Assembly: GCA_963727625.1 (NCBI GenBank)
Contig: CAVSHR010000004.1
Coordinates: 1,504,001-1,568,000 of the forward strand
Length of the DNA: 64,000 nt
Reading direction: 5' to 3'
From: an uncultured delta proteobacterium
Lineage (GTDB): Bacteria > Desulfobacterota > Binatia > UBA9968
Both the position numbers and the translations under genes were made by a program. This document shows, in pieces, positions 27,026-51,498 of this stretch. The notes beneath the pieces are model-generated. The model saw only the letters and a list, made by a program, of their open reading frames with translations. It made no database searches and was not told the DNA's origin. Numbering within the stretch: position 1 is the first letter of the stretch; every line of letters starts with the position of its first letter.

Positions 27026-27041
27026 CGGCATTGTGATTGCT
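27026..27041 (+). promoter_or_regulatory. Putative sigma54 (-24/-12) promoter of the NRPS operon
   Basis: CGGCATTGTGATTGCT = GG-N10-GC with GGCA and TTGC. Confidence 0.55.
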
Positions 27042-27293
27042 TTGATCACTGGGTCTAAGCCTTAACCGCTAGGGTTCTAGAATCCTATTTTTCAAACGAA
27101 TAAATCAATAGATGATCAGAATGCTATTTTTCACTGACATGGTACTTTCTCCGGCTGGGTCGATTACTGTTTTGGTATTGAATTTTGCAAACGGTTGGCT
27201 GACCCCCAGTTGGTCAAACGGGGCCGGCGCCGGACAAAGTTCCAAAACATCGGCTCGCGGAATAAATAGCGCCAATGGGCAACCGAGAGCAAA

Positions 27294-29282
27294 ATGATCA
27301 ATCGACTCACGAACCTGCCACCGGCGCAGCAAGCGATCCGGGATAAGTGTTTTCACCCTTCCGGAACCTTTGTCGAGTTTCCGACCGAGGATGTCGAGAC
27401 TTCGATCCCGGCGCGGTTCGAAAAGATCGTAAGGATGTATCCGGATCGGATCGCGGTCAAGGCCGAAATCACTCGGTTACTTATACAGAGTTGAACGCGA
27501 TGGCGAATCGGGTCGCTCTAGCTGTTTCGTTGCAACAGCGGGTCTATTCTGAGCCTGTCGGCATCTTTCTTGAGCAAGAAGTCGAACGAATCGCAGCCAT
27601 GCTTGGTGTGCTTAAGGCAGGCGGATACTTCGTTCTATTGGATCCTGCTTTGCCGTCGGCTCGGATAGCCACGATTTTGGCAGATTCGGGAGCCACTCAC
27701 GTTATTGGCAATGAAAGGACCGGTGCTGATTTACGAATGTCCTCGGGGATTAGTAGTAGATTTATTGCTTTTGAAGGGTTCATGGTACATGCTCTTGCCT
27801 CCCATCCGCGGCAGGGGAGTTCGCCAAGCGACTATAGTTATATCGCCTACACCTCCGGCTCTCTAGGGCAACCCAAAGCGATCATCCAGACCCATCGGAG
27901 CCTTCTTCACCGGGTCATGCTGCATGTCCGTGTAAGCGATATCACTTGCCAGGACCGAGTGGCGCATCTCACTTCCGGGACATCCAACGCGATTACCACA
28001 GCATTCTATGCTCTGCTTAACGGTGCGACTCTCTGTCCCTTTGACGTCAAGAAATATGGGGTCGACGCGCTTGCAGGTTGGCTGGCCCGAGACCAAATTT
28101 CAATTTGCTTCATTAGCGCCACACTTTTTCGCGATCTTTGCAGCGTTCTGGACCGCGGCGAAAACTTTCCCGTTCTTCGGTTTATTAAATTGCGCAGTGA
28201 AGCGGCTTTGAAAAGTGACGTCGAACTTTTCAAAAAGTACTTTTCGTCGAAATGTAGATTAGTGCATTCACTATCATCCAGTGAAACTGGAACGCTTTGT
28301 AATTATATCGTATGTCGCGACAAGGAGATCCCGATCGACGAATTGCCGATTGGTTTTCCCGCTGAGGGTAAAGAAATTTATTTGCTCGACGACGAAGGAA
28401 AAACATTAGGCTTCAACGAAGTTGGTGAAATCGTCGTCCGCAGCCGTTACCTTTCGCGCGGTTATTGGCGTCGCCCGGAACTCACCGAAGCCAAGTTTAA
28501 AAGCGACCCAAATGACGCTGACACGAAGCATTACCGTACAGGCGATTTGGCTCTGATGCTTCCCGATGGCTGTTTGATCCACAAAGGGCGAAAGGATTTT
28601 AGGGTCAAGCTTCGTGGCTATGGAGTTGACCTAAAAGAAGTTGAGAAAGTACTGCTGGAGCATCCTGCAATTGACAACGCCGCGGTGGTCACGTGGCAAG
28701 GGCTGGCCGGGCAGCAGTGCTTGGCGGGCTATGTTGTTTTATGCAAAGGTGTCGCGCTCAGCGTAAGTGACATCAAAGAACATTTGAAGATTAAATTGCC
28801 CGATTACATGATTCCTGCGAAGCTCATTTTTTTAAATTCGCTGCCCCTGACGAACGGGAAGTTGGACCGTCTGGCCCTGCCGATGCCGGATAATAACCGT
28901 CCGGATTTAAAAGAATCTTACGTAGCGCCACGGAGCGACATTGAAAGAAAGCTCTCCGAGATATGGGCGGAAGTTTTGAGTGATTGATCGAGTCGGCATC
29001 CACGATGATTTCTTCGACTTGGGCGGTCATTCGCTGGCGGCATCGCGGGTGATCTCCCGGGTGATTCAATCATTTAACCTAGAGCTGCCGGTTAAGGCGC
29101 TCTTCGAATCACCGACGGTCGCTGAGATGGCGGCAGTCATCGCAAAACACGAAGCGAAGCCGGCAAGCGACGCAGACCTAGCGCAGATGCTGCGTGAGGT
29201 AGAGGCGATGACGGAAGAAGAAGCGCAGAAACGGCTTGCCGGGCAAAGCGCGCGCGACTCTACCGGAGATGGACATGAGTGA
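27294..29282 (+). pseudogene. NRPS A-T loading unit 1 (frameshifts at ~27465 and ~28982; decay or sequence error)
   Basis: Joins ORFs 27294, 27347 and 28980: head LPPAQQAIRDKCFHP, YTSGS, YRTGD, NGKLDR, FFDLGGHSL, acidic tail. Confidence 0.75.
27326..27461 (+). repeat. ~136-bp NRPS head repeat, copy 1 (others at 29316-29451, 35094-35229, truncated at ~41094-41107)
   Basis: Copies 1 and 2 differ at 11 of 136 positions by manual alignment. Confidence 0.85.
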
Positions 29283-31233
29283 TTCTCTCAATCTGGGCTT
29301 CACCCTTCCACCTGAGCAGCAAGCGATCAGGGATAAGTGTTTTCATCCGTCCGGAACCTTTGTCGAGTTTCCGATCGAGGATGTCCAGACTTCTATCCCA
29401 GCGCGGTTCGAAAAGATCGTAAAAATGTATCCCCATCGGATCGCGGTCAAGACCGCTGACGAAAGCATAACTTATGAAGCCTTAAATCAGTCTGCGAATC
29501 GACTCGCCAATGTTATCCTGGCTTGCGTCGAAAATACCGATGCACCTGTTGCCGTAATCCTTCGTCCGGGAATTGCGCAGTGTGCGGCGATTTTAGCGGT
29601 TCTAAAAGCAGGCAAAATATTGTTGCTCCAGGATTCAAGAAGCGACTCGGATGAAGTTGACCATTTCCTGACGGACTCTCAAGCCGGGCTGATTCTTAGA
29701 AGCGAAAAAAACAAGTGGAGCCTTACCGAAAGGGCAGCGACGAGTTCACGGGTGGTCGACATCGAGACTTCAAATATCGATAGCGAGAATCCTAGAATCC
29801 TCATACACCCCGATACTCCAGCCTACATAAAATACACATCAGGCTCCTCGGGACGAGCCAAAGGCATTGTGATCTCCCATCGAACACTCCTGCATAGAGT
29901 CATGACTTATACGAACTCTTGCCACTTTTCCGCGCAAGATCGGCTGGTTCGAGTAAACAGAAATACCATCAGTAGGCAATTGTTTATCCATTTGCTCAAT
30001 GGCGCGACATATTGCCCTTATGATTTCGATAGTGAGGGGTTACACCATTTAGCGATTTGGATGAAAACCCGCGCAATCACAATTTATCGATCGTTTCCCG
30101 GAGTCTTTCGATTATTAGTGAGCTCGTTGGCCGGTCAGGAACGTCTCACAACTTTGCGTCTAATCCGGCTAGGCGGAGAACCCCTCTATCGCAGCGATGT
30201 AGAATTATTCAATAGACATTTCTCATCTGACTGCGTGCTCATTCATTCTTACGCTGCCAGTGAAACAGGACTCATTTCCACCTACTACCTTGATCACAAT
30301 ATGAAAATTCTCGGTCACCGTGTTCCGGTGGGTTATCCGGTAAGCGGCAAGAATGTGTCCATCATCGACACGGACGGCAACGAACTTCCAGTCGACCAGA
30401 CTGGCGAAATCGCGGTGAAGAGTCGATTTCTTTCCGCGGGATATTGGCGACGCGGTGAGGACACGAGCAACACATTTGAATCTTCAGCTGTGGGTTCCGA
30501 GACAAAACTCTATCGCACCGGTGACCTGGGGCGGCTATCCAACGACGGTTGCTTGGAGCATTTGGGACGGAAGGATGACCGGATAAAGATTCGGAATTTC
30601 AGGGTTGATATTGGCGAGGTCGAAGCCAAACTCATGGAACACCCGGAAGTCAAACTTGCGGTGGTCACGGCGAAGGAAGATGCCAGCGGTGATGCGAGAC
30701 TGGTTGCCTACTTTGTGCCTCAAGATCTACCGGCCCCGACCGTTACAGTTCTCCGCGAATTTCTTAGTGCGTCGCTGCCGAGCTATATGGTTCCGTCGGT
30801 TTTCATTGCACTGGCCGAGCTACCTTTAACAAAGAACGGAAAAATCGATCGCCGCAATTTACCCACGCCCGGCAAACGGAGACCGAATTTGGCGACGCCC
30901 TTCGTCGAGCCAACATCGACGATTCAAACAAAACTCGCAGGGATCTGGAAGGATGTTTTAGCGCTTGACCAAGTCGGGATTGACGACAACTTCTTCGACC
31001 TCGGTGGTCATTCATTAACGGCGGCCCAGATCATCTCTCGGCTTATTCAGGCTTTTCAGTTAGAGTTGCCGCTTAAATCGCTGTTCCAGGCGCCGACGAT
31101 CGCTGAAATGGCGGCGATCATCGCGGAGCATCAAGGAGAAAACTTAACCGTGCAAGCCATGGAACGCGTTTTGAGCGAAATAGAATCGATGTCTGATGAT
31201 GAAGCGCAAAGAATAGTAGCTAAGGAAGTGTAA
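29275..31233 (+). CDS. NRPS A-T loading unit 2
   Basis: ATG 29275; LPPEQQAIRDKCFHP head, YTSGSSG, YRTGD, LTKNGKIDR, FFDLGGHSL, tail LSEIESMSDDE. Confidence 0.88.
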   Translation: MSDSLNLGFTLPPEQQAIRDKCFHPSGTFVEFPIEDVQTSIPARFEKIVKMYPHRIAVKTADESITYEALNQSANRLANVILACVENTDAPVAVILRPGIAQCAAILAVLKAGKILLLQDSRSDSDEVDHFLTDSQAGLILRSEKNKWSLTERAATSSRVVDIETSNIDSENPRILIHPDTPAYIKYTSGSSGRAKGIVISHRTLLHRVMTYTNSCHFSAQDRLVRVNRNTISRQLFIHLLNGATYCPYDFDSEGLHHLAIWMKTRAITIYRSFPGVFRLLVSSLAGQERLTTLRLIRLGGEPLYRSDVELFNRHFSSDCVLIHSYAASETGLISTYYLDHNMKILGHRVPVGYPVSGKNVSIIDTDGNELPVDQTGEIAVKSRFLSAGYWRRGEDTSNTFESSAVGSETKLYRTGDLGRLSNDGCLEHLGRKDDRIKIRNFRVDIGEVEAKLMEHPEVKLAVVTAKEDASGDARLVAYFVPQDLPAPTVTVLREFLSASLPSYMVPSVFIALAELPLTKNGKIDRRNLPTPGKRRPNLATPFVEPTSTIQTKLAGIWKDVLALDQVGIDDNFFDLGGHSLTAAQIISRLIQAFQLELPLKSLFQAPTIAEMAAIIAEHQGENLTVQAMERVLSEIESMSDDEAQRIVAKEV

Positions 31234-31348
31234 AGCCGTGGAACGTGCTGACCATGATTTTGGTCGCTCAACAATGGAGCTCGGCCGCTCTTAAAATTTA
31301 ATCGAAGTGTCGATCGAGCAAAGAAACGTTTATTTGGAAAGAAGAGCG

Positions 31349-34300
31349 ATGTCTACTGGATTACAAAACGAACTAAGCAAACGAATGGCTGCGCTATCAC
31401 CCGCAAAGCGGGCGCTTCTCGAGGAACGGTTGAATAAAAAGAGCCCTGATACATCAGTGACGGAGGCCATACCGCGCCGCCCATCGCGGGAATCCGCATC
31501 CCTCTCCTTCGCCCAGGAACGTTTGTGGTTTCTCAATCAATTCGATCCCGAGAGCTCGGCCTACAACGAGCCGAGAGTAATACGATTGAGCGGTTCGCTC
31601 GATGTAAAAGCCCTAGACAAAGCCCTCAATCATATAGTCGCGCGGCACGAAGTGTTACGGACGACGATTGTCGTCGTCGACGGAAGCCCCATGCAACGGA
31701 TCGCAGAGCGCCGCACTATAGACCTGCCGGTGATCGATCTGCGGATTCATAGCGTCCAGGACCGCGACGCCGAGGCGCGCCGATTGATAGATGAAACGAT
31801 CCGCCATCCATTCAACCTGTCTACCGATCTAATGTTACGACCGTTATTGCTGCAATTAGGTGACCAAGAGCACATCCTCGTTCTCGTAAAGCACCATGTG
31901 GCTACGGACGGCTGGTCCTCGGGACTATTTTGGCGCGAAGTTGCAACCCTATATAGAGCATTTAGGACCGGGCAACCGGCGAATCTTCCGGAGCTGCCGA
32001 TTCAGTACGCGGATTACGCAGAATGGCAACGAGAGTTGCTGCAGGGAGAGGTTTTAGAAACTCAGATTTCCTATTGGAAGCAACAGCTCGCCGGCGTTTC
32101 GGACTTGCAACTGCCGACCGATCGGCCGCGGCCGGCGGTGCAGAGTTATCGTGGCGCGCGGCAGTCAATTTCGTTTTCCAGAGAACTAACGGACACTCTC
32201 ATCAGCTTGAGCCGGAAGGAAAACGCCACGCTTTACATGGTTTTACTGGCAGCGTTTCAGACTTTGCTTTCTCGATATTCAGGACAGATGACTATTGCAG
32301 TCGGTTCTCCGATTGCGAACCGCACGCGCCCCGAAATAGAAACCTTGATAGGATTTTTTGCCAATACACTGGTCCTTCGCGGTGACCTATCAGACAATCC
32401 GACCTTTAAAGAATTCTTGGTTCGCATGAAGAACGTTGCTTTGGACGCCTATGCGCACCAGGATCTGCCGTTTGAAAAACTAGTGGCAGAGTTACGGCCG
32501 GAAAGAAATTTGAGCAACTCTCCGCTATTCCAGGTCATGTTCGTATTCCAAAACGCCCCAAGGGAGGCTCTAACGTTGCCGGGGCTTACTATGTCTAATG
32601 TCGAACCGGGGAAGACGACGGCCAAATTCGATCTCCTCTTATCGCTCCGCGAAGACACAGCGGGTTTGAGAGGATCCTTGGAATATAGCACCGATTTATT
32701 TGACGAGTCGACGATTATTCGGATGCTTAGGCATTTTCGAACCCTGCTCGAAGGCATCGTGGCCGACCCGAACCGGCGGACCGGCGAATTGCCACTGCTG
32801 GCCGAAGCCGATCGGCATCAATTGCTGTTAGAGTGGAACGACACTCGACGGAATTTTTTGCAAAGCAAAAGTATCGTCGCGATGTTCGAGAAACAGGTCG
32901 AGCGAGAACCCGACGCGCTCGCTGTAATATTTGAAAATAGCACTCTGACCTACCGAGAACTCAATCAGCGGGCCAACCAGCTGGCGCATTACCTGATCAG
33001 GCGGGGAGTTCAGGCAGAGACCCCCGTGGCCATTTGTCTCGAACGGTCCGTAGAACTTGTCGTAGGCTTATTGGCCATTCTCAAGGCCGGAGGAGTTTAT
33101 CTACCTCTGGAACCGAGCTATCCGCAAGAGCGGCTTACATTCACGCTACAAGATTCGCAGGCGCCATTGGTGATAAGTACTCAGTCCATGTCGTCACGGT
33201 TCTCGTGCGATGGGGTAGAGTCGATCTTTTTGGATATAGCGCAGGGGGACATCGCGCGGGAAGGTCGATCCAATCCAGGACTTTCTATTGCACCGGACAG
33301 CCCGGCTTATGTGCTTTATACCTCGGGTTCCACCGGTCGGCCTAAGGGCGTCGTGATGGGACACGGGGCGCTTAGGAATTTGATCTCCTGGCAGTTGGAG
33401 AATTTCAGCGCGCCCGCGGCGGCCCGTACCCTGCAGTTTGCATCTCCAGGTTTCGACGTCTCGATCCAGGAGATGTTCTCCACGTGGTGCGGAGGCGGAT
33501 CGCTGGTTTTGATCGATGATGAGCTTAGAAAAGACGCGCTAGGATTGCTGCAATACCTGGACGAACAATCCGTTGAGCGATTATTTTTGCCTTTTGTCGC
33601 CCTCCAGCAGTTGGCGGATGCCGGAGCGCAAATGCTACGTGCCCCCAAGAGTTTACGCGAAATCATCACGGCCGGTGAACAACTGCGGCTCAGCGAAGAG
33701 TTAAGAGCGTTTTTGAACAGACTTGGCGATTGCTGCTTACGCAACCAGTATGGCCCGACTGAAAGTCACGTAGTGACTGAATTTACACTTAAATCGCCAT
33801 TTGATCATTTTTCTGAACTTCCGCCCATCGGACGGCCGATAGCGAACACGCAAGTTTACATCGTCGATTCACATTTAAACCCTGTTCCTGTCGGAGTGAC
33901 GGGAGAACTCCATATTTGCGGAGAGGGGTTAGCGCGAGGTTATTTAAACCGCCCTGAGCTAACCGCAGAGAAATTCATTCCGAATCCGTTCAGCACCGAG
34001 CCGGGAGCCCGTCTGTATAAGACCGGGGACCTCGCTCGCTACCTGCCCGACGGTAACATCGAGTTTCTCAGCCGAATCGATCAACAGGTCAAGATACGAG
34101 GTTATCGGATTGAGCTAGGCGAGATCGAGGCGGTGCTCGGACAGCATCCCTCGGTCCGAGAGGTTGCTGTGCTGGCCAGAGAAGATAGCCCGGGTGACAA
34201 GCGTTTGGTGGCATATGTGGTCAGCGCGTCAAGCTCAAGCTCTTTGGCAAGCGAACTGCGCACATTTCTACAACAGAAGTTCCCCGAGTACATGGTGCCG

Positions 34301-34756
34301 TCCGCGTTCATGTTCCTGGAATCGCTGCCGCTCACACCCAACGGTAAAGTGGACCGAAAGGCCCTGCCCGCCCCTGATCAAAGCAGACCGGAGCTGGAGC
34401 ACAGCTACACCGCCCCGCGCACGCCGGTAGAGGCGTTGCTGGCAAACATCTGGGCCGAAGTCCTCAAGCTCGACAAAATAGGCATCCACGACAACTTCTT
34501 TCAACTGGGAGGGCATTCTCTCATGGCCACCCAGGTGGTCTCCCGCGTGCGTCAAGCGTTCCAGGTCGAGCTGCCGGTGCGTGCTCTGTTCGAGGCGCCG
34601 ACGGTAGCGGAGTTGGCTTTGAGGATCGAGCCGAGTGCACTCCGGGGCGGCGATCTTGAGGAGCTTGCCCGCAATCTGGCGGAGGTGGAATCCCTGTCGG
34701 AAGAAGAAATAGGCCGCATGCTGCCCGAAGAACTGAATGGCGAGAAAAGCAAATAG
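31349..34756 (+). CDS. Monomodular NRPS C-A-T (Pro/pipecolate-like code DVQFIAQVVK)
   Basis: Head LSPAKRALLEERL, HHVATDG, FDVS, NQYGPTE, GGHSL, tail LAEVESLSEEE. Confidence 0.92.
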   Translation: MSTGLQNELSKRMAALSPAKRALLEERLNKKSPDTSVTEAIPRRPSRESASLSFAQERLWFLNQFDPESSAYNEPRVIRLSGSLDVKALDKALNHIVARHEVLRTTIVVVDGSPMQRIAERRTIDLPVIDLRIHSVQDRDAEARRLIDETIRHPFNLSTDLMLRPLLLQLGDQEHILVLVKHHVATDGWSSGLFWREVATLYRAFRTGQPANLPELPIQYADYAEWQRELLQGEVLETQISYWKQQLAGVSDLQLPTDRPRPAVQSYRGARQSISFSRELTDTLISLSRKENATLYMVLLAAFQTLLSRYSGQMTIAVGSPIANRTRPEIETLIGFFANTLVLRGDLSDNPTFKEFLVRMKNVALDAYAHQDLPFEKLVAELRPERNLSNSPLFQVMFVFQNAPREALTLPGLTMSNVEPGKTTAKFDLLLSLREDTAGLRGSLEYSTDLFDESTIIRMLRHFRTLLEGIVADPNRRTGELPLLAEADRHQLLLEWNDTRRNFLQSKSIVAMFEKQVEREPDALAVIFENSTLTYRELNQRANQLAHYLIRRGVQAETPVAICLERSVELVVGLLAILKAGGVYLPLEPSYPQERLTFTLQDSQAPLVISTQSMSSRFSCDGVESIFLDIAQGDIAREGRSNPGLSIAPDSPAYVLYTSGSTGRPKGVVMGHGALRNLISWQLENFSAPAAARTLQFASPGFDVSIQEMFSTWCGGGSLVLIDDELRKDALGLLQYLDEQSVERLFLPFVALQQLADAGAQMLRAPKSLREIITAGEQLRLSEELRAFLNRLGDCCLRNQYGPTESHVVTEFTLKSPFDHFSELPPIGRPIANTQVYIVDSHLNPVPVGVTGELHICGEGLARGYLNRPELTAEKFIPNPFSTEPGARLYKTGDLARYLPDGNIEFLSRIDQQVKIRGYRIELGEIEAVLGQHPSVREVAVLAREDSPGDKRLVAYVVSASSSSSLASELRTFLQQKFPEYMVPSAFMFLESLPLTPNGKVDRKALPAPDQSRPELEHSYTAPRTPVEALLANIWAEVLKLDKIGIHDNFFQLGGHSLMATQVVSRVRQAFQVELPVRALFEAPTVAELALRIEPSALRGGDLEELARNLAEVESLSEEEIGRMLPEELNGEKSK

Positions 34757-34772
34757 ATAGAAGGAGAAGCGT

Positions 34773-34991
34773 ATGGACGAGAAGGAAGACAATACTATTT
34801 ACAGAGTCGTTGTGAATCACGAAGAGCAGTACTCGATCTGGCCGGCAGAGCGGGAAAATCCGCTGGGATGGAAGGATGCCGGCAAGAGCGGTCCGAAACA
34901 GGAGTGCCTGGCCTATATCAAGGAAGTCTGGACGGATATGAGACCGCTGAGTTTGAGAAAGAAGATGGAGGCGCAAGGACGGAAAGCTTAG
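34773..34991 (+). CDS. MbtH-like protein
   Basis: [13 protein letters not shown]...P.GW...[17 protein letters not shown]. Confidence 0.95.
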
Positions 34992-35052
34992 CCAATGCAG
35001 CGCGGCTGTCTTTCACCATTGACTACAGGAGAGGTCGGAATCGGACCCGGAC

Positions 35053-41000: not shown

Positions 41001-41055
41001 GATTCATCGGACGGGGCCGGCGGTGAGACTCGAAATCCTTCGAAAACGAACATGA
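35053..41055 (+). CDS. NRPS A-T-C-A-T-TE (TE tail frameshifted from ~40478)
   Basis: LPPEQQ head, two A domains, two GGHSL T domains, HHIITDA, TE with GACFG. TE continues in ORFs 40445, 40608 and 40699. Confidence 0.85.
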
Positions 41056-41193
41056 GTGATTCGCTCCGACCGGCCTCTACGTTGCCGCCCGAACAGCAGG
41101 CGATCCGATCTTGAGGAGTTTGATCGTAGTCTGGCCGAGGTAGAGTTGCTGTCAGAGGAAGATATAAAATACCAACTCAATAAGACGCCTTAA
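41052..41193 (+). pseudogene. Empty NRPS relic: head peptide fused out of frame to tail peptide
   Basis: MSDSLRPASTLPPEQQAIR followed directly by DLEEFDRSLAEVELLSEEDIKYQL*. Confidence 0.75.
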
Positions 41194-41217
41194 ACGGCAA
41201 GAGAAGAGGAATAGCGT

Positions 41218-41412
41218 ATGGACGAAGAGGAAGACAATACGATTTATAAGGTCGTTGTGAATCACGAGGAGCAGTACTCGATCTGGCCGGCAGAGCGGGA
41301 CAACCCGCTGGGATGGAAGGATGCCGGCAAGAGCGGTCCCAGAAGCGGATTGCCTGGCCTATATCAGGGAAGTCTGGACCGAAATGAGGCCACTATTATC
41401 TTTTCAGCTTAA
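41218..41412 (+). pseudogene. Second MbtH-like protein, frameshifted near 41340
   Basis: N-terminus nearly identical to 34773; C-terminal '[15 protein letters not shown]' is in a shifted frame. Confidence 0.8.
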
Positions 41413-41459
41413 AGCCAGCACATTGAGAACATTTTGCTCTAAGGGATAAACGCGAAGAA

Positions 41460-44400
41460 ATGGATAACGATTCATTTAAGACACCGGAGACTAAGGACCA
41501 TCTCGCCGGTCGTATCGCCGGTCTCTCCCTGGAAAAGCGCGCGCTTCTCGAGCTGAGACTGAAGAATAATCTCGCTCGCGCCTCCGCTGAACTGATCATA
41601 CAGCGTGTGGCACTACGCGAGTCAGTCCCACTTTCTTTTTCCCAGCAGCGGCTGTGGTTTTTGGATCAGTACGAGCCGAACAGCTCGGTTTACAATGTTC
41701 CGAGCGCCCAGCGGCTTCGAGGGCCACTCGATATCGGCGCGCTAGAGCACAGTCTCGGTGAGATCGTAGGGCGCCATGAAGCGCTCAGAACGACATTCTC
41801 AGTGGTCGAGGGAGAACCGGTTCAGGTGATCGCGCCCGCAGCGAGTATTTCGCTGCCCGTATCGGATCTCAGTCATTTTGCGAACAGCGAGCGTGAGGAA
41901 GAGGCCCGACGGCTTGCCACGGCAGAAGCTCGGCGGCCCTTTGATCTCAGTCAAGGCCCGCTGTTTCGGGCCACTCTCATCCGGCTGGATGAAGACGATC
42001 ACCTATTACTGTTGACGATGCATCATATTGTCTCTGACGGCTGGTCGATGGGAGTGCTTCACCGCGAGCTGTCGGTCCTCTACCAGGCTTTTTCCCAGGG
42101 GCAGCCCTCTCCCCTTGCCGACTTGCCGATCCAGTACGCCGACTATGCGGTATGGCAGCGGGAGTGGCTCAAGAAAGACGAGTTAGACAGGCAGTTATCG
42201 TACTGGAAAAAGCAGCTGGAGGGGGTCCCGGCAGTGCTCAATCTTCCCACCGATCGGCCCCGTCCGGCGGTGCAGAGCCACCGGGGAGCACGGCAGTCGA
42301 TTACCTTGTCTAAGGAGCTCTCCGAGAAGCTCAAGGGATTAAGTCGCACGCAGGGAGTCACGCTGTTCATGACTCTTCTGGCGGCTTTTCAGACCCTGCT
42401 TTATCGCTACACGGGGCAGGAAGACATTGTGGTGGGCTCGCCGATCGCCAATCGGACTCGGACCGAAATCGAGGGTTTGATCGGCTTCTTTGTCAATACC
42501 TTGGTGCTGCGGTCAAACTTCTCTAGCAACCCAACATTCAAAGAGCTCTTAGCCCAAGTTAGAGAGACGGCCCTGGGAGCTTATGCGCACCAAGACCTGC
42601 CGTTTGAAAAACTCGTCGAAGAACTCAAACCGGAACGCACCCCCAGCCACTCGCCGCTGTTTCAAGTTCTTTTCAATATGGCCGGCCAGGGGGACTTCAA
42701 TCTTGATTTGCCTGGACTCACGACCGAGCGGTTGTCATTTTCCGACGCAGAGTCAAAGTTCGATCTTACTTCGTATGTCGGAGAACAGAAGGATGAAATC
42801 AGCGTCAACCTCGTTTACAGAGTCGACCTGTTTAGCGAGTCCTGGATAACATGTTTTTTACAGCAATACCGGTATTTGCTCGAGCAGCTCGTGAGCACCC
42901 CGGAAAAGTCGATCCGATCGTATTCGCTCGTCACTCCGGAATCGCGCGTTCTGTTGCCCGATCCGAGCGCTGTTCTCACTGAGCCGCCGCAAAAGTTGGT
43001 AACCGACAAGTTCTTGTCATGGGCTAGACAAACGCCGGTGCAGCCCGCGGTTAGTCAAGGCCAGCAAACGTTGACGTATGAGCAATTGGCTGAGCATGCC
43101 GATTCGATTGCCCGAGCGTTAATGGCAACCGGGTTGGAGCCGGGAGATGTCGTCGCCGTTCATGGTCGTCGAAGCTTTGGTTTGGTCGCCGCTATGATCG
43201 GCACCTTCTTGAGTGGCGGAGTACTTCTGCTTATTGACCCCAACCTACCAAAGCGGCGCAAACAGCTCATGCTTAAAGAAGCCAGAGCGCGGAAATTTTT
43301 ATCCATAGGAGACCAGGATGAAAATACGGGGGTGAATGCAGACTACGCGATCGACGTTCTATCGGTCGATCCAGCGACTGGACATGTTCTGGGTTTAAAA
43401 AACGCTGTGGATCTGAATACGATTTCGTCGCCAAAAGTTTCGCCTAATGATCCCGCCTATATTTTTTTCACCTCGGGGACGACCGGGATTCCCAAGCCCG
43501 TGTTGGGTTGCCATAAAAGTTTAAGCCATTTCCTTGGGTGGCAGCGCGAGACTTTCGCCATTGGACCAAACGATCGGGTAGCGCAACTCACCAATCTTTC
43601 CTTTGACGCGGTCTTGCGGGATATTTTCCTGCCTTTGACAAGCGGCGCCACGCTTTGTCTGCCGGAACTCAATGACGACGCTGGCTCCGCCGATCCAATT
43701 TGTTGGTTGGAACGTGAACGCATCTCCGTTCTACACACCGTTCCTTCGTTGGCCGATTCTTGGTTAGCGTCTGAGGTGCAGCCATTCTACCTGCCTCATT
43801 TGCGCTGGCTGTTTTTTGTCGGCGAGCCGCTCACCGATACGCTGGTGCGACAATGGCGCGTTACCGTTAAGAATGCTGGAGAGATAGTCAATCTCTACGG
43901 ACCCACGGAAACCACCTTGGTAAAATGTTTTTACCGAGTGCCAGCCGACCCGCGACCGGGCGTTCAACCGGTGGGCTCGCCGATCTCCGGCGCTCAGGCG
44001 CTAGTCTTAGGACACGACAACCAGTTGTGTGGGGTCCACGAGCCCGGCGAGATCGTTCTTCGAACTCCTTTTCGCAGTTTGGGCTATCTGAATGCGTCCG
44101 ATGAGAGCCGGAAGCGATTTATCAAAAATCCATTTCGTGACGATGCCGAGGACTTGATTTACTTCACCGGCGACGCAGGTCGCTACCGTGCCGATGGGAC
44201 GCTTGAGATCCTAGGGCGACTCGATGATCAGGTTAAGATTCGCGGCGTGCGCATCGAACCGGCTGAAGTCACGGCGATACTCTCCCAAAATCCTCTAGTA
44301 GCCTCCTGCATCGTGGTTGGCAAGAAAAACGAAGGCGGTGAAACTCGCTTGGTCGCTTACGTGGCGGCCTCGAAACAAGGGCAGACATCAGGTGCACAGC

Positions 44401-44852
44401 TAGCCTCCTATTTACTTGAGCGGCTACCCGCTGCCATGATGCCATCGGCGTTTGTATTTTTGGATGCTCTGCCCCTTTCACCCAACGGTAAGGTCAATCG
44501 CGAAGCACTTCCCGAACCGAGTCACAATCGATCTGAAGCATGCGAGGCTTTCGTGGCACCGCGCACCGAACTTGAGCAGATTGTCGCGGGTATTTGGGCA
44601 GAGGTTCTCAAACTGGAGAGAATCGGCGTCCACGACAGTTTTTTCGAGCTGGGTGGGCATTCACTACTTGCGACCCAGATTGTTTCAAGACTTCGCGTAG
44701 CGCTGCACGTGGAGTTATCTTTGCGGGCTCTATTTGAAAAACCGACCGTCGAGCGTTTATCTGACCACATCGAGGGGCTTCGGTGCGCCGGAACAGCAAA
44801 TCAGCCGACGTCCATAGATGCTTTCGGTGAGAAAGAAGAGATATTGCTATGA
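41460..44852 (+). CDS. Monomodular NRPS C-A-T (acidic-residue-type code DARHFVLLVK), C-terminal EKEEILL docking motif
   Basis: Head LSLEKRALLELRL, HHIVSDG, SFDAVLRDIF, GGHSL. Confidence 0.92.
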   Translation: MDNDSFKTPETKDHLAGRIAGLSLEKRALLELRLKNNLARASAELIIQRVALRESVPLSFSQQRLWFLDQYEPNSSVYNVPSAQRLRGPLDIGALEHSLGEIVGRHEALRTTFSVVEGEPVQVIAPAASISLPVSDLSHFANSEREEEARRLATAEARRPFDLSQGPLFRATLIRLDEDDHLLLLTMHHIVSDGWSMGVLHRELSVLYQAFSQGQPSPLADLPIQYADYAVWQREWLKKDELDRQLSYWKKQLEGVPAVLNLPTDRPRPAVQSHRGARQSITLSKELSEKLKGLSRTQGVTLFMTLLAAFQTLLYRYTGQEDIVVGSPIANRTRTEIEGLIGFFVNTLVLRSNFSSNPTFKELLAQVRETALGAYAHQDLPFEKLVEELKPERTPSHSPLFQVLFNMAGQGDFNLDLPGLTTERLSFSDAESKFDLTSYVGEQKDEISVNLVYRVDLFSESWITCFLQQYRYLLEQLVSTPEKSIRSYSLVTPESRVLLPDPSAVLTEPPQKLVTDKFLSWARQTPVQPAVSQGQQTLTYEQLAEHADSIARALMATGLEPGDVVAVHGRRSFGLVAAMIGTFLSGGVLLLIDPNLPKRRKQLMLKEARARKFLSIGDQDENTGVNADYAIDVLSVDPATGHVLGLKNAVDLNTISSPKVSPNDPAYIFFTSGTTGIPKPVLGCHKSLSHFLGWQRETFAIGPNDRVAQLTNLSFDAVLRDIFLPLTSGATLCLPELNDDAGSADPICWLERERISVLHTVPSLADSWLASEVQPFYLPHLRWLFFVGEPLTDTLVRQWRVTVKNAGEIVNLYGPTETTLVKCFYRVPADPRPGVQPVGSPISGAQALVLGHDNQLCGVHEPGEIVLRTPFRSLGYLNASDESRKRFIKNPFRDDAEDLIYFTGDAGRYRADGTLEILGRLDDQVKIRGVRIEPAEVTAILSQNPLVASCIVVGKKNEGGETRLVAYVAASKQGQTSGAQLASYLLERLPAAMMPSAFVFLDALPLSPNGKVNREALPEPSHNRSEACEAFVAPRTELEQIVAGIWAEVLKLERIGVHDSFFELGGHSLLATQIVSRLRVALHVELSLRALFEKPTVERLSDHIEGLRCAGTANQPTSIDAFGEKEEILL
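41643..42667 (+). repeat. 1025-bp C-domain duplication, second copy at 45089-46113
   Basis: Colinear at offset 3446 with roughly 30 differences by eye (~97% identity). Confidence 0.9.
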
Positions 44853-47800
44853 CGATCGCTGAGCTCCTGTCTCACTTGCAAAATCAGCACGTTACGCTTC
44901 GCGCTGACAATGACCATCTCATCCTTAACGGCCCGAAGGGAGCACTAACCTCCGCACTGCGCGCCGAGTTAATTGAGAGGAAAACGGAAATCCTGGCGTT
45001 TCTGAGAAACACGACTCGCTGTGCAAAACCCGAAGAGTTATCTCCTCGGCGGTTGTCGAGGAAATGGCGTTTACCACTTTCCTTCGCGCAGCAGCGGCTG
45101 TGGTTTTTGGATCAGTACGAGCCGGGCAGCTCGGTTTACAATGTTCCGAGCGCCCAGCGGCTTCGAGGGCCACTCGATATCGGCGCGCTAGAGCACAGTC
45201 TCGGTGAGATCGTCGGGCGCCACGAAGCGCTCAGAACGACATTCTCAGTGGTCGAGGGAGAACCGGTTCAGGTGATCGCGCCCGCGGCGAGTATTTCGCT
45301 GCCCGTATCGGATCTCAGTCATTTTGCGGACAGCGAGCGTGAGGAAGAGGCTCAAAGGCTCGCCACGGCAGAAGCTCGGCGGCCCTTTGATCTCAGTCAA
45401 GGCCCGCTCTTTCGGGCCACTCTCATCCGGCTGGATGAAGACGATCACATCTTGCTTTGCTCCATGCATCATATTGTCTCTGACGGCTGGTCGATCGGAG
45501 TGCTTTACCGCGAGCTGTCGGTTCTCTACCAGGCTTTTTCCCAGGGACACCCCTCTCCCCTTGCCGGCTTGCCGATCCAGTACGCCGACTATGCGGTATG
45601 GCAGCGGGAGTGGCTCAAGGGAGACGAGTTAGACAGGCAGTTATCGTACTGGAAAAAGCAGCTGGAGGGAGCCCCGGCAGTGCTCAATCTTCCCACCGAT
45701 CGGCCCCGTCCGGCAGTGCAGAGCCACCGGGGAGCACGGCAGTCGATTACCTTGTCTAAGGAGCTCTCCGAGAAGCTCAAGGGATTAAGTCGCACGCAGG
45801 GAGTCACGCTGTTCATGACTCTTCTGGCGGCCTTTCAGACCCTGCTTTATCGCTACACGGGGCAGGAAGACATTGTGGTGGGCTCGCCGATCGCCAATCG
45901 GACTCGGACCGAAATCGAGGGTTTGATCGGCTTCTTTGTCAATACCTTGGTGCTGCGGTCAAACTTCTCTAGCAACCCGACATTCAAAGAGCTCTTAGCC
46001 CAAGTTAGAGAGACGGCCCTGGGAGCTTATGCGCACCAAGACCTGCCGTTTGAAAAACTCGTCGAAGAACTCAAACCGGAACGCACCCCCAGCCACTCGC
46101 CGCTGTTTCAAGTGATGTTCGTGCTTCAGAATGCACCCAGCACGGAACTCAAGTTTGAGGGTCTCAGTGTGAGTCCGGTAAGGGTGGGTGAAGAGACGGC
46201 AAAGTTTGATCTGACTTTCTCTGTGAACCAAGCGGCGGAAGGGCTCCGGTTTTCGTTGCACTACGACACCGATCTTTTTGACGCCTCGACGATTGAACGG
46301 ATGATCGGCCATTTTAGAACCTTGCTTGAAGGGATTGTGGCCAATCCCGAGCAGCGCATCTCCGACCTGCCAATGCTGACCGAAGCTGAAAAACACCAGC
46401 TGTTAATCGAGTGGAACGACACCAAGGCCGACTATCCGAAAGACAAGTGCATCCACGAGTTATTTGAAGAGCAGGTCGACCGCACGCCTGAAGCGGTGGC
46501 GGTCGTTTTTGAGGACCAACAACTTACCTACCGAGAGCTCAATACCCGCGCCAACCAACTCGCCCATCATTTGCAAGAACTCGGAGTCGGTCCCGACCTC
46601 TTGGTCGGCATCTGCATGGAGCGATCCCTAGAGATGGTCGTGGGGCTGCTAGGAATCCTCAAAGCCGGTGGTGCCTACGTCCCGCTCGACCCAACCTACC
46701 CCAAAGAACGGCTGGGGTTCATGCTGGAGGACACAAAGGCCGGCGTAATTTTGACCGATACGGTTTCGCTGAACAGCCTTCCCCCCGTTAGCGCCCGGAC
46801 GATTTGTCTGGACCGGGACTGGGAAAAGATTAGAACTGAGTCGCAAAACAATCCGAGCAGTCAAAGCACAGCCAACAATCTCGCCTATGTAATCTACACT
46901 TCCGGTTCGACCGGACGTCCTAAGGGCGTCCAGGTTGCGCACCGTGCTGTGTCTAATTTCCTCACTCATGCGAGAAAAGTCCTAAGCCCGACTAAGAAAG
47001 ACACCTTTCCCTTAGTGGCTAATATTTGTTTCGATATTTCGGTGATGGAACTTTTTCTGCCGCTCCTTTCGGGTGCCCGCTTGGTCGTAGCCAGCCATTC
47101 GGTTGTCATTGATGGAACCCGGATCCAAGAGATGCTATCGGAGTCCGAAATTACAATCATGCACGCGACACCGGCAACGTGGCGAATGCTTTTACAAACC
47201 GGCTGGACCGGCGCAGCCAACTTGACGATCCTTTGTGGGGGAGAGGCGCTTCAAATTGAATTGGCGGATGAATTAATGACGCGGGGCTCCTCGGTGTGGA
47301 ATCTGTATGGTCCTACGGAGACAACGATTTTTTCCTCTTTTACAAGGTATCGGCACCCGTATAATCACGGCACGGTATCGATTGGCCGCGCTGTCGCGAA
47401 CACGCAATTCTATATTCTTGATGATCATCTGCTGCCGGTTCCGATTGGAGTTTCGGGACAGCTTCACATAGGGGGAGACGGCTTGGCGCGAGGCTACCTA
47501 AACCGGCCTGACCTTACCGCGGAAAAGTACATCCCCGACCCATTCAGCAAAACTCCGGGGGCGCGCCTTTATAGGACGGGGGATTTAGCCCGTTATTTAC
47601 CCGATGGCAACGTCGCGTTTCTCGGCCGTATCGATCATCAGGTAAAGCTCCGTGGCTTCCGTATCGAGTTGGGAGAGATTGAAGCCGTACTGGGTGAGCA
47701 TTCTAAAGTTCGTCAATCGGTTATTCTCTCACGAGAGGATGTTCCCGGAGACAAGCGACTTGTGGCTTATGTGGTACCAACCCACAGCCGTACTGCTCCC

Positions 47801-48310
47801 GTCAACGAACTACGGGCGTTTCTAAAAAATCAATTGCCCGAATACATGGTGCCGTCCGCATTTGTGTTTATGGAATCGCTGCCGCTTACGCCCAACGGCA
47901 AATTAGACCGCAAAGCACTTTCGGCCCCGGATAAAAGCAGCTTTGAATTGGCAACGAGCTACGTCGCGCCTCGGACCCGGGAGGAGAAATTGATCGCAGA
48001 GATATGGGCCGAAGTGTTGAGACTCGAAAAGGTCGGTATCCACGACAATTTCTTTGATCTTGGCGGTCATTCATTGAAGGCCACGCAAATTATCTCTCGA
48101 TTGCGTGCATCGTGGCGGATGGATCTGCCCTTGCGCGTCCTGTTTGAGGCACCGACTGTAGCAGAGCTGGCCTTGAGACTTGAGCGGAGTGCATCGGAAT
48201 CCGATGAGCTCGAAGAGTTTAGCCGTAATCTGGCTGAGGTGGAATCGCTGACAGATGAAGAAATAGAGCGGCAGCAGATCGATAAGCACAAGAAGCAGCA
48301 GAGATGCTAG
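44849..48310 (+). CDS. Monomodular NRPS with TubC-type N-terminal docking domain, C-A-T (Gly-clade-like code DIMHLGLIFK)
   Basis: MTIAELLSHL...L....PKGALT..LRAELIERKTEILAFL head, HHIVSDG, FDIS, GGHSL, tail LAEVESLTDEE. Confidence 0.92.
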   Translation: MTIAELLSHLQNQHVTLRADNDHLILNGPKGALTSALRAELIERKTEILAFLRNTTRCAKPEELSPRRLSRKWRLPLSFAQQRLWFLDQYEPGSSVYNVPSAQRLRGPLDIGALEHSLGEIVGRHEALRTTFSVVEGEPVQVIAPAASISLPVSDLSHFADSEREEEAQRLATAEARRPFDLSQGPLFRATLIRLDEDDHILLCSMHHIVSDGWSIGVLYRELSVLYQAFSQGHPSPLAGLPIQYADYAVWQREWLKGDELDRQLSYWKKQLEGAPAVLNLPTDRPRPAVQSHRGARQSITLSKELSEKLKGLSRTQGVTLFMTLLAAFQTLLYRYTGQEDIVVGSPIANRTRTEIEGLIGFFVNTLVLRSNFSSNPTFKELLAQVRETALGAYAHQDLPFEKLVEELKPERTPSHSPLFQVMFVLQNAPSTELKFEGLSVSPVRVGEETAKFDLTFSVNQAAEGLRFSLHYDTDLFDASTIERMIGHFRTLLEGIVANPEQRISDLPMLTEAEKHQLLIEWNDTKADYPKDKCIHELFEEQVDRTPEAVAVVFEDQQLTYRELNTRANQLAHHLQELGVGPDLLVGICMERSLEMVVGLLGILKAGGAYVPLDPTYPKERLGFMLEDTKAGVILTDTVSLNSLPPVSARTICLDRDWEKIRTESQNNPSSQSTANNLAYVIYTSGSTGRPKGVQVAHRAVSNFLTHARKVLSPTKKDTFPLVANICFDISVMELFLPLLSGARLVVASHSVVIDGTRIQEMLSESEITIMHATPATWRMLLQTGWTGAANLTILCGGEALQIELADELMTRGSSVWNLYGPTETTIFSSFTRYRHPYNHGTVSIGRAVANTQFYILDDHLLPVPIGVSGQLHIGGDGLARGYLNRPDLTAEKYIPDPFSKTPGARLYRTGDLARYLPDGNVAFLGRIDHQVKLRGFRIELGEIEAVLGEHSKVRQSVILSREDVPGDKRLVAYVVPTHSRTAPVNELRAFLKNQLPEYMVPSAFVFMESLPLTPNGKLDRKALSAPDKSSFELATSYVAPRTREEKLIAEIWAEVLRLEKVGIHDNFFDLGGHSLKATQIISRLRASWRMDLPLRVLFEAPTVAELALRLERSASESDELEEFSRNLAEVESLTDEEIERQQIDKHKKQQRC

Positions 48311-50215
48311 AAGGAAACAACGATCGAATGGTGGAAACAGCAGGCTATACGATCTATCAACTTATTCGAGATTGGGCGAAAGCGACCCCTGAAGCTATCG
48401 CCATCGCTTCCCCGGTCCACGAACCGATCACTTATCGGCAATTGGTCAGTCAAGTCGATTCTATCGTCAAATCACTCGGTGAAATTGGGATCGGTCATCA
48501 AGACCGCGTTGCTATTGTTGTGCCAAATAGTTTTGAGCTGGCGATAATTTTTCTCGGCGTCTCCTGCGCTGCTATCAGTGTCCCGCTTAATCCGTCGAAT
48601 CGAGAGAATGAATTCGACTTTTATCTCTCCAATGTTCCTGCCAAAGCGCTCGTCGTCCAATCAAGCGTGGACTCGGCCGCGGTTTCGGCTGCGCGAAGGC
48701 GCGCCATCCCCGTCATTGAAGTCGTCTCAACGTCAAATGCGGGGCCCTGCGTTTTTATCCCTAAAATTTCAACGTCCGCCCCCCCTACCCGTTATCGTCA
48801 ATCCGAGCCGGATGACGTCGCCCTCGTGCTTCATACTTCGGGAACGACCGCCAAGCCGAAAAGAGTTCCGCTCACTCACAGAAATCTGTGCGTATCCGCC
48901 TCTTCAATTCAAAAGACCCTTCATTTGACAAACAAAGACCGCTGCCTAGGCGTGATGCCCTTGTTTCATATTCACGGCCTAGTCGGCGGGCTGCTTTCTT
49001 CGTTGGCAGCCGGCGCCAGTTTCGCGGCCGCACCCGACTTTGACGGCGATCGTTTCTTCGACTGGATGAAGGAGCTCTCCCCCACATGGTACACGGCGGT
49101 TCCGACAATTCATCAGGAAATTCTCAGACGTGCCCGAGAGCGAAACGAACGCATCCCAACGAATCGCCTTCGTTTTATTCGATCATCGTCTGCTCCGCTT
49201 CCGCATAAGGTCATGGTCGATCTCGAGGAAGTTTTTAGCGTGCCGGTCATCGAAGCTTACGGTATGACCGAGGCTTCCCACCAAATATGTAGCAGTCAGC
49301 TGCCTCCAGCGGAGCGCAAAGCGGGTTCTGTCGGGATAGTGACCCACACGGACATCGCGGTCATGGACGAAACAGGAAATATTGTCAACGCCGGGAGGGG
49401 CGGGGAAATCGTAATTCGTGGGACCAACGTCATGATGGATTATGAGTCTGACGACGCTAACGAAGGGCCGTTCATCAATGGATGGCTTCGAACGGGGGAC
49501 ATGGGATACTTCGATTCTGACGGTTTTCTCTTCCTTACGGGACGGCTAAAGGAGATCGTCAACCGTGGTGGCACTAAAATAATGCCATGCGAGATCGACC
49601 AAGCGTTGCTCGATCATCCCGATATCTTGCAGGCGGCTGACGTTTGCCACATCGCATCCGACTCTCGGCGAGGAATTGCGGCGGCCGTTGTGGCGCGCGA
49701 CCGAACCCAGACAACGGAGGCAACATCCGTGAATATCTGATTCAGCGTTTAGCCACTTGTCAAAGTGCCGTACTCGGCTATTGATTGTAGATCGACATCC
49801 CAAAGAGTCCAACCGGAAAAGTCCAGCGAGCTAACTTAGCCAAGATATTCGCTGAACGAATGCCGGGCTGGTTTCGTTGCTCCGAAAAACAAGTTGGAGG
49901 CGATCGTCGCCCGTGATGTTTGCCGATATCTTGGAAATTAAACAGGTCAGCTCACGCGATAATTTCTTCGCCCTGGGCGGAGATTCTCTTCGCGCTACGC
50001 AGGTGATATCTCGTGTTCGGTCGCTTTTATCTATTAACGTTGCCGATCTCAACCTTGTTCTTGAAAACAACCGTGGTGGAGCTTGCGGAGGAAATTGCCG
50101 CATCAGTGCATTCGCTCGATCACAACTTGGAAACGGCAATCATGACAGAATCGAGAGCGGTTTCGGAGGAAGGACGCTCAGCCAAAATCTAGCTGAAGTG
50201 TCATTGCCAAAATGA
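48304..50215 (+). pseudogene. Oxalate-CoA-ligase-like acyl-adenylating domain fused to T domain (multiple frameshifts after ~49640)
   Basis: LHTSGTT..PKRVPLTH, MPLFHIHGL, WYTAVPTIHQ, FIRSSSAPL, EAYGMTEASHQ; downstream FFALGGDSL. Confidence 0.75.
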
Positions 50216-51498
50216 CAAAAAAAAATAACCAGATGGACCCATCAGAGCTAGCGAGCCGCTTTGCCAATCTTTCACCTTTGAAACGAGCGTTTTTGGAGGA
50301 AAGGCTTAAGGAAAAGGGTCTCTATTCTTTAGTTAAGCCGACTATCCCATATCGGACGACATCGGAAACAGCAGCTCTACTCCCAACGGCAAGGTGGACC
50401 GAAAGGCACTGCCAGCCCCTGAGCTGAGGCGGTCGAGTCTTGAAAGAAAACTACGTACCTCCTAGAAATTTTACGGAAAATAGCATCGCTAAAATCTGGC
50501 GCGAAGTGCTTGGCATAGATCGAATAGGGATTCACGATAATTTCTTTGACTTGGGTGGCCATTCACTGCTTGCAGTAAAACTCCTGTCGCAGTTGGGGAA
50601 TTTTTATAATCTAGACATAAAAACGCGCTGGCTGTTCGAATCCCCTACCATCGCACAGTTTGCCAAGCACATCCGGAGTAGAAGTTTCTCCAACGAAGGA
50701 GAGAAAGCAACGTGGTCAAATTTAGTGAAGTTGCAGCCGAGTGACGGGAAACGGCCGGTGTTTTTTGTTCCCGGAGGTGCCGGTGGTGAACAAGACATGC
50801 TCAGATGTATCCCCCTCCTTCGTCGACTTGGAGATAAGTATTCCTTTTATGGATTATTGAGCCAGGACAACCGGGTGCTCGGGAGCGTCGAAGAAATCGC
50901 TAAAGAATACCTCAAAGAAGTGAGAACCGTTCACCCCGACGGTCCATATGTTTTGATCGGCGAGTGTATTTCGGGGGTTGTAGCGTACGAGATGGCCCAA
51001 CAACTGCGTGCTCAAGGCCAAAACGTCGCTTTATTGGCGCTTTTAGATACTGTTCGGGTGACCAAACGCAGGTACTTTAATTTTCAACGTCACTATTACC
51101 TGCAAAGACTGACTGTTCATTGGAACCATTTACAAGAGTTCAATTTAGGGGAAAAGATTGTTTATTCGTTGCAAGCAGCAAAGGCAGTTGTCTCCGCGAA
51201 GTTCTTTCTTGATGGGAAACGAGGCAAGAAGAACAGCCAAAAGATAAGCACTACGGGATACGACTACGATACGACTCTTCTTCGTTACCGCCCGCGGGAA
51301 TATCAAGCCCGTATGACCCTCATTTTAAGTGAAACGATTTACAACAGACAACCTGATGGAGGATGGGCTAACCTCGTGCCTGCCGGCGTAGACGTCTACA
51401 GGGTCAACGCTCCTCACAATACATACCTGACAGATCACGTCGATTTTACCGCTACACTCTTGAGAGAATGTTTAGAATGCGCGGAAGGGGATATTTAA
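50212..51498 (+). pseudogene. Docking head + (deleted C-A) + T-TE termination protein, two frameshifts near 50378-50440
   Basis: LSPLKRAFLEERL, then TPNGKVDRKALPAP (A10 motif), then T (GGHSL) and TE (GECISG, LLD, PHNTYL). ORF 50440-51498 is intact as T-TE. Confidence 0.75.

Follow-up and report, generated by a model that had tools for sequence, protein, structure and literature searches.

A probably decaying nonribosomal peptide synthetase island in a Binatia genome and its loader-rich relatives

Genes and borders of the island

We analyzed a window of 64,000 nucleotides from an uncultured delta proteobacterium (Binatia; UBA9968; contig CAVSHR010000004.1 of assembly GCA_963727625.1, positions 1,504,001 to 1,568,000), which contains an island of about 25 kb of nonribosomal peptide synthetase (NRPS) genes. 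All genes from 27294 to 51498 (numbered from the start of the window) lie on the plus strand, tightly packed and with several stop/start overlaps. They encode adenylation (A), carrier (T), condensation (C) and thioesterase (TE) domains, as well as stand-alone A-T proteins, which we call loaders. On balance, we think that this is probably a decaying island of a genus-specific family of multi-protein clusters that are rich in loaders and wired by docking peptides. The genes of the island and its two borders are:

26488-26564, minus strand: tRNA-Pro(GGG), left border of the island (ARAGORN and Rfam, 64.4 bits)
27294-29282, plus strand: stand-alone A-T loader, broken; acidic tail core at 29190-29222; an intact homologue aligns in frames 3, 2, 3
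29275-31233, plus strand: stand-alone A-T loader, intact; tail core at 31171-31203 (Pfam)
31349-34756, plus strand: head-C-A-T module, intact; head core at 31394-31432, tail core at 34676-34708 (Pfam)
34773-34991, plus strand: MbtH-like gene, intact (PF03621, E = 1.1e-23)
35053-41020, plus strand: A-T-C-A-T-TE gene with a broken TE; open reading frame (ORF) 35053-40545; GACFG at 40411-40425
41052-41193, plus strand: relic of a deleted loader, 140 nt; N-terminal loader motif (41082-41111) out of frame with the tail core (41131-41163)
41218-41440, plus strand: second MbtH-like gene, frameshifted near its 3' end (PF03621 profile positions 5-45 of 53, in ORF 41218-41412)
41460-44852, plus strand: head-C-A-T module, intact; head core at 41523-41561, C-terminal EKEEILL at 44829-44849 (Pfam)
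44849-48310, plus strand: TubC_N-C-A-T module, intact; acidic tail core at 48230-48262 (PF18563 and other Pfam families)
48304-50215, plus strand: acyl/acid ligase-T gene, broken; degenerate tail at 50177-50203
50212-51498, plus strand: terminal module, broken; head core at 50269-50307, T-TE ORF 50440-51498 with GECISG at 50959-50976
51725-52078, minus strand: merR-family gene, right border of the island (Pfam and synteny in congeners)

Pfam identified A, T, C, TE, MbtH or TubC_N domains in 12 of the 15 ORFs that we scanned, and no Pfam family in the other three (27294-27494, 40608-41114 and 50212-50427). The ORF extents from Pfam at the start of the island are A at 27347-28987 and T at 28980-29282; A-T at 29236/29275-31233; and C-A-T at 31307/31349-34756. 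The order of the modules, with A, C, carrier and release domains and MbtH, is that of a modular (type I) NRPS according to Pfam, with the caveat that both thioesterases are disrupted or severed from their own module. Five genes are uninterrupted: 29275-31233, 31349-34756, 34773-34991, 41460-44852 and 44849-48310. A prior interpretation of this DNA (the sequence-only reading) counted seven of eight synthetase genes with at most one module. Single-module proteins with docking ends do exist here, but that count took broken pieces for genes.

The site between tRNA-Pro(GGG) and merR varies among congeners, and the locus is an island inserted there. Among 30 congeners, 25 have a match to merR, and in 20 of those 25 tRNA-Pro lies about 100-600 nt from it. 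(These 20 loci are 9 from one set and 11 of 13 from a second set, with one of them, L115, from the unpublished genome G005.) In 4 of the 25, the contig stops at merR. The congener G014 has a 42-kb NRPS island at this same site, also with broken genes, and it is related to the window's island in pieces, at 65-80% nucleotide identity. We found no att-like direct repeats at the borders of the island. G+C content dips to 0.48-0.52 at both ends of the island (26000-32000 and 50000-52000), versus 0.55-0.59 in the flanks. Beyond merR are ihf-like, pheT, pheS, rplT, infC and thrS genes.

Decay or assembly artifact

Six genes are broken (frameshifted or deleted), including both release domains. The first loader (27294-29282) has two frameshifts, at 27467-27476 and 28981-28989, and its AMP-binding and PP-binding matches are on separate ORFs. 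In the gene at 35053, the A-T-C-A-T portion is intact, but Pfam reaches only positions 2-105 of 226 of the TE profile, and comparison to an uninterrupted T-TE frame from the same genome (G000:C2:218929-219966) shows at least 4 frame changes within 40520-41010. This gene had been described as a self-contained A-T-C-A-T-TE, which still applies to everything except its TE. As for the relic at 41052-41193, a three-frame reading and the junction sequence show that the body of the loader is deleted, with the junction at about 41105. The second MbtH-like gene switches frames at 41327-41346. In the ligase-T gene, AMP-binding is found solely in 48304-49740 and a partial PP-binding domain in 49877-50215, and, relative to a homologue on contig 10 of the same genome (G000:C10), the frame changes at least 6 times in its 3' part with the T domain (49640-50215), which also contains 2 in-frame stops. 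Two A-T loaders and one ligase-T, previously read as three alternative loaders, are indeed present, but only 29275-31233 is intact.

In the terminal module, the head ORF is joined, out of frame, to the final A-domain motif (50379-50423; junction at about 50380), and a further frameshift lies between the end of the A domain and the T-TE ORF. Relatives of this T-TE sit in frames of 1283-1398 amino acids, and the one of 1395 amino acids is a head-C-A-T-TE protein, so the terminal module has apparently lost its C domain and most of its A domain. Both thioesterases have cysteine instead of serine in the nucleophile motif (GACFG and GECISG), as does the T-TE frame on contig 2, and this may point to an unusual release chemistry.

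The sequence-only reading had allowed that the gene splits could be assembly artifacts. In about 40 kb of flanking sequence, 26 of 34 ORFs have a Pfam family and none of them is split. Flanking genes for ThiC, PheT, PheS, ThrRS, SdhA, an aldehyde dehydrogenase and HflX match their profiles from end to end. Five other NRPS frames in the same genome (2346, 2840, 2452, 2157 and 1592 amino acids) are uninterrupted. None of the break sites that we read is at a homopolymer of 5 or more, and homopolymers are about equally dense in the locus (0.95 per kb) and in the flanks (1.0 per kb). The lesions are clustered within the locus, and two of them are kilobase deletions with out-of-frame junctions. Because the lesions are local and clustered and include these deletions, because the flanks and the other NRPS frames are unbroken, and because the sites are off long homopolymers, real decay is favored over artifact, short of proof. 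Over 31600-51599, the only public read run found (X1, with 0.06 of the words) gave scattered short contigs, some of them identical, with no usable cover of the break sites, and two exact-pattern scans of metagenome contigs for the deletion junctions gave no match.

If the breaks were nevertheless artifacts, then the island could be a working, non-colinear line with interchangeable tails and heads that makes a family of small acyl-peptides, much as the sequence-only reading had it. We consider this improbable. The lesions are dense (one stretch of 500 nt has at least 4 frame changes, and one of 570 nt has at least 6 along with 2 stops), nothing like them is seen in the 40 kb of flanks or in about 34 kb of other NRPS frames, polishing errors would not produce the two out-of-frame kilobase deletions, and no intact release domain is still joined to a head. 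Since only one of the three loaders is intact, and the terminal module and the two thioesterases are all broken, the claim of a working combinatorial line at this locus does not hold up. What speaks for mixing and matching is described below: three near-identical tails and three similar heads; loader pockets that all differ; an intact cluster in the congener G044 whose loading units outnumber its C domains and heads; and purifying selection on a pair of orthologous loaders.

Other NRPS-like genes in this genome are broken as well: A and T-TE are in separated frames at G000:C2:218929-221635, and a TAG codon interrupts an A-T gene in frame at G000:C9:446765-448711. Such breaks suggest that genes of this family are steadily gained and lost. 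In one of the broken genes of the G014 island, a head and the start of a C domain are joined in frame to the end of an A domain and a T domain, in an ORF of 282 amino acids (G014:C3:608460-609305, within L094). Internal deletions of this kind between head and T arose independently in the window (50212-51498, out of frame) and in G014 (in frame).

Docking peptides, substrate pockets and a proposed ancestral line

We searched the 13,238,944 six-frame residues of the whole genome with strict patterns for the acidic tail and the basic head. The tail pattern has just four matches, each of them after a T domain and 9-19 residues before the stop, and as all four are in the locus, the motif is not due to chance. 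The head pattern also has four matches, three of them in the locus. Looser tails of the same type end two other synthetases of this genome, and on contig 7 the same type of head is found on a C domain that stands alone. The tails that had been reported at the ends of the genes stopping at 29282, 31233, 34756, 41193 and 48310, the degenerate tail near 50170, and the heads at 31349, 41460 and 50212 were all located, with the cores listed above. The net charge is -4 to -7 for the tails and +2 to +4 for the heads.

Among the tails of the genes ending at 34756, 41193 and 48310, 14-16 of 23 residues agree, as do 13-16 of 25 among the three heads. Given tails and heads this similar, docking alone could hardly order these modules. 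The two loader tails have 7 of 23 residues in common, and each has 5-9 of 23 in common with the other tails. The likeness of the tails goes back to recent internal duplication, for which there are several signs. The C domains at 41628-42667 (gene 41460) and 45074-46113 (gene 44849) are 96.5% identical over 1,040 nt; a block of tail plus MbtH (34651-34948) is repeated at 41106-41394 with 79.6% identity; 31349 and 44849 share 69.7% identity across 875 nt of their 3' (A-T) parts; and the 5' ends of the loaders are 86-90% identical. The identity between the C domains begins exactly at the end of two different heads (one helical, one TubC_N) and stops inside the C domain. Such a high identity behind different heads looks like a recent gene conversion or cassette swap.

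The second type of junction is between 41460-44852 and 44849-48310. The former has EKEEILL at its C-terminus and a stop that overlaps the start of the latter, whose residues 3-53 match positions 1-51 of 52 of the TubC_N profile (PF18563, E = 4.8e-15), so this pair, too, was found where it had been noticed before. Endings akin to EKEEILL precede TubC_N-type heads in cyanobacterial loci. By sequence, EKEEILL/TubC_N is an ordinary docking pair of a short linear motif (SLiM) and a beta-hairpin domain.

As for the helical type, every head-bearing gene that we examined follows a tail-bearing gene (6 of 6 in three genomes: three in the window, one in G014 and two in G044), with an MbtH gene intervening in two of the window's cases. 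The same types of tail and head recur at T|C junctions of cyanobacterial, acidobacterial and Chloroflexi loci, with the labels Nostoc, Cyanosarcina, Calothrix, Sphaerothrix, Pyrinomonadaceae, Thermoanaerobaculaceae and Caldilineaceae, as judged by eye from about a dozen termini of each type and from alignments. (We aligned 29 T domains with tails, A1; 15 heads, A2; and 24 tails, A3. Loose regular expressions were too narrow for 80 distant loci, where they caught 3 of the 88 frames that end in T and 2 of the 71 that start with C.) The known docking classes of NRPSs are COM, the three-helix PAX type and the beta-hairpin type, and polyketide synthases (PKSs) and hybrids have the class 2 helical type, according to PMC9113145. 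The acidic-tail/basic-head pair thus appears to be an ordinary one, found across phyla and closest to the class 2 and PAX types. Taken together, these observations support the view that the proteins are wired by predicted terminal docking peptides of two classes, whose partners we infer. We also considered an N-terminal motif of the loaders as the acceptor for the preceding tail, and rejected it because first-in-line A domains and A-T-TE enzymes lacking an upstream partner carry this motif as well. At the place where split forms end in a tail, fused A-T-A-T-C-A-T proteins show a plain linker.

Could the island instead hold two or three duplicated colinear lines, with one-to-one docking set by the variable positions of tails and heads, no crosstalk, and extra A-T genes that are redundant duplicates being lost? 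There are two groups of tails, as the loader tails differ both from the elongation tails and from each other; one junction uses a further, orthogonal docking class; and duplication is evident in the locus. Also, the specificity of helical docking rests on few salt bridges, and natural docking crosstalk is on record for rhabdopeptide/xenortide-like peptide (RXP) synthetases, COM and CurK (both according to PMC9113145), of which the first point would help this explanation and the second would not. Between 34756 and 48310 the tails hardly differ, even though different partners would be expected for them, and colinearity does not explain why loaders outnumber C domains and heads in G044. We think that this explanation is unlikely, although it is the likeliest of the alternatives that we considered.

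To predict substrates, we extracted signatures from the A domains by anchoring them on alignments, with motif positions from the numbering of GrsA. Judged against reference signatures, DVQFIAQVVK (31349-34756) is presumably proline-like, and DIMHLGLIFK (44849-48310) is presumably glycine-like. The signature of 41460-44852 is DARHFVLLVK, which we take not to be aspartate-like, and it does not bear out the aspartate-like substrate that had been suggested for this module. Asp235 holds the alpha-amino group of the substrate. It is missing from all three loader A domains of the island (in an alignment to LgrA, the loader 29275-31233 has asparagine in this column) and from both A pockets of the 35053 gene. 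Across the genus, none of 33 loader-type domains shows aspartate in the 235 column, although 10 of the 33 are gapped at the first positions. Given the role of Asp235 and its loss here, the loaders probably take non-amino carboxylic acids. These 33 domains have 32 distinct signatures, and the sole repeat is an orthologous pair.

Returning to the decaying island of a loader-rich family, we propose the following mechanism. Clusters of the family would combine stand-alone A-T loaders with single C-A-T modules, using two docking classes: a two-helix acidic tail after T with a one-helix basic head before C, and a C-terminal short linear motif with a TubC-type beta-hairpin domain. In the ancestral line, one or more loaders would have fed 31349-34756 (proline-like), which would have passed its chain to 41460-44852 by a helical pair; from there it would have moved to 44849-48310 (glycine-like) by EKEEILL/TubC_N and, by another helical pair, to a C-A-T-TE protein at 50212, whose Cys-type thioesterase would have released it. 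The ligase-T starter and the self-contained A-T-C-A-T-TE would have stood beside this main line. Internal duplication and gene conversion presumably enlarged the island, which is now in decay. Most likely, it makes no full product, or merely crippled shunt products.

Several results weigh against this account. No intact orthologue of the island is present among the 30 congeners searched (the best identity for the T-TE is 38%), so the ancestral gene set had to be rebuilt from paralogues and distant relatives. The genome is 6.6 Mb in 15 contigs with an estimated contamination of 6.3%, and assembly or consensus errors may be responsible for some lesions, chiefly the isolated breaks at 27467-27476, 28981-28989 and 41327-41346. 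Although heads follow tails, the converse fails: at 29282->29275, 34756->35053 and 48310->48304, a tail is followed by a headless gene. In comparisons with the Protein Data Bank (PDB), no docking domain of known structure was matched at a significant level: the best match of the head profile (A2) is the N-terminal part of CurH in the CurG-CurH fusion 4MYY, at a non-significant E of 0.24, with no match to the PAX entries; in sequence searches, a single head had no match and T plus tail matched via the carrier domain alone; and the tail profile found unrelated helical proteins only. AlphaFold2 predicted helices at 74-85 and 89-99 of T plus tail (A1), with a mean predicted local distance difference test (pLDDT) score of 61.9 and values under 55 in the tail. 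A predicted complex of T plus tail from 29275-31233 with the head of 31349 scored 0.06, which counts neither way.

Loader-rich clusters in the genus and known systems

Matches to the loader were present in all 41 genomes that we searched, and within the genus many are in frames of about 660 amino acids. In one congener, 40 matches reach an E-value of 1e-100 or lower, and 22 of these sit in frames of 625-735 amino acids. Outside of the genus we found no close relatives (39% identity at best). A pair of orthologous stand-alone A-T genes from two congeners has a ratio of nonsynonymous to synonymous substitution rates (dN/dS) of 0.25, which indicates purifying selection. The A-T-A-T-C synthetases at G000:C2:541151-548188 and G014:C3:581536-591786 have two loader didomains with no C domain between them, and their start corresponds, in fused form, to the tandem A-T genes at 27294-31233.

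The congener G044 has an intact cluster of 34 kb, with the order A-T-C-A-T, four A-T, head-C-A-T, three A-T, ligase-T, a thiamine-diphosphate (ThDP) enzyme, C-A-T, and head-C-A-T-TE. Of its 12 synthetase genes, 10 had their domains confirmed by Pfam, which also identified the ThDP enzyme. Between the proteins of this cluster and their counterparts in the window, identity is 36-55%. The cluster has seven stand-alone A-T genes, two heads and four C domains. At least two loading units thus stand beside one acceptor both in the window (two A-T and one ligase-T, of which one of three is intact) and in G044 (seven A-T and the ligase-T). The idea of many loaders and few acceptors survives as a hypothesis about the family and not as a working system at the window's locus. 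The gene for the ThDP enzyme (L138:14193-15824, minus strand) lies between the ligase-T and the next C-A-T and has no counterpart in the window; it would fit a keto-acid chemistry for starters.

A bolder version is that the genus maintains a plug-in library: dozens of stand-alone A-T proteins per genome, whether grouped or dispersed, with distinct pockets for non-amino acids, a common class of acidic tail and few head-bearing acceptors, would yield large families of N-capped peptides, and the window's island would be a decaying member. The near-identical C domains with different heads would then mean that docking peptides are swapped as evolutionary cassettes. We think that this version is quite unlikely.

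Alternatively, the acidic tail might not be a docking peptide for the heads of C domains, or not solely, and might instead be an extension of this clade of A-T proteins with another partner or role, with many of these proteins outside of assembly lines. Tails far outnumber heads (36:3 in G014, 9:1 in G004, 8:0 in G003, 14:3 in G044 and 6:4 in the window's genome), but the profiles behind this ratio, A3 (made up largely of these very tails) and A2 (made from a small number of heads from the genus), bias it towards tails. In 7 of the 17 stretches fetched from G014, a lone A-T gene is found without any C-domain frame, and the neighbors of these genes are unrelated (LigB, LysR, a CoA-transferase and a PEP mutase among them; one gene adjoins an IS91-type transposase and an integrase). 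Many of the solitary A-T proteins of G014 (L101, L103, L105, L106, L110 and others) have an extra short conserved motif at the C-terminus, after the tail (A1). On the other hand, all six head-bearing genes follow a tail-bearing one, and the same pairing is seen at T|C junctions of other phyla. We rate another role for the tail as the least probable of these explanations.

The probably decaying island and its loader-rich family can be compared with known systems. The RXP synthetases of Xenorhabdus and Photorhabdus (Kj12ABC) give peptide libraries by promiscuous docking (PMC6195595, PMC9872161, PMC9113145). As in RXP, the window has single-module subunits joined by terminal docking peptides only, and its EKEEILL/TubC_N junction is of the same SLiM/beta-hairpin class. 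However, as these papers describe it, RXP uses the beta-hairpin class at all junctions and has iterative modules, whereas the window has a TubC_N head at one junction and three helical heads. Also unlike RXP, its subunits include stand-alone A-T loaders and thioesterases, and about half of the locus is broken. The N-terminus of 44849-48310 matches the TubC-type docking domain (PF18563; complex in PDB 6EWV, PMC9113145), the upstream protein has the acidic-then-hydrophobic end, and there is no notable difference by sequence from what is described there. The helical pair resembles class 2 docking of PKSs (CurG/CurH, 4MYY) and PAX (PaxB/PaxC, PDB 6TRP; PMC9113145) in having a predicted helical C-terminal piece after the carrier (two helices in the window, modeled at low confidence), a presumably helical N-terminal piece, and opposite charges atop a hydrophobic core, and the head motif resembles the N-terminal helix of CurH (with the non-significant E-value given above). 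It differs from class 2 in that the junction is T|C in an NRPS rather than between an acyl carrier protein and a ketosynthase.

Alternative starter modules are known from the clusters for anabaenopeptin (Rouhiainen 2010) and puwainaphycin/minutissamide (Mares 2019), as cited in PMC7524897. These also have more than one loading unit per cluster, and theirs feed the same downstream module, which widens the range of products. Where those clusters have two starters, clusters of the present family have as many as seven stand-alone A-T genes together with a ligase-T, and there are dozens of dispersed copies per genome. Also unlike in those clusters, the pockets of these putative loaders lack Asp235. 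We found no description of arrays of stand-alone A-T genes in the main texts of the open-access literature that we searched.

Since the docking classes are known, RXP and alternative starters are known in kind, and this copy is largely dead, the island does not stand as an undescribed plug-and-play system. The interest that remains is in the family of loader-rich clusters and the evolutionary traffic of docking cassettes. The island gives a snapshot of how a multi-protein synthetase is rebuilt, with the same C domain behind two docking classes, a duplicated block of tail and MbtH, and whole C-A units excised between head and carrier, here and independently in a congener. In the genus, stand-alone A-T genes with a tail have expanded to an unusual degree, and their pockets are diversified. 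If these loaders truly compete for the same head, they would be a natural template for docking-based exchange of starter units, which engineers are now attempting by hand.

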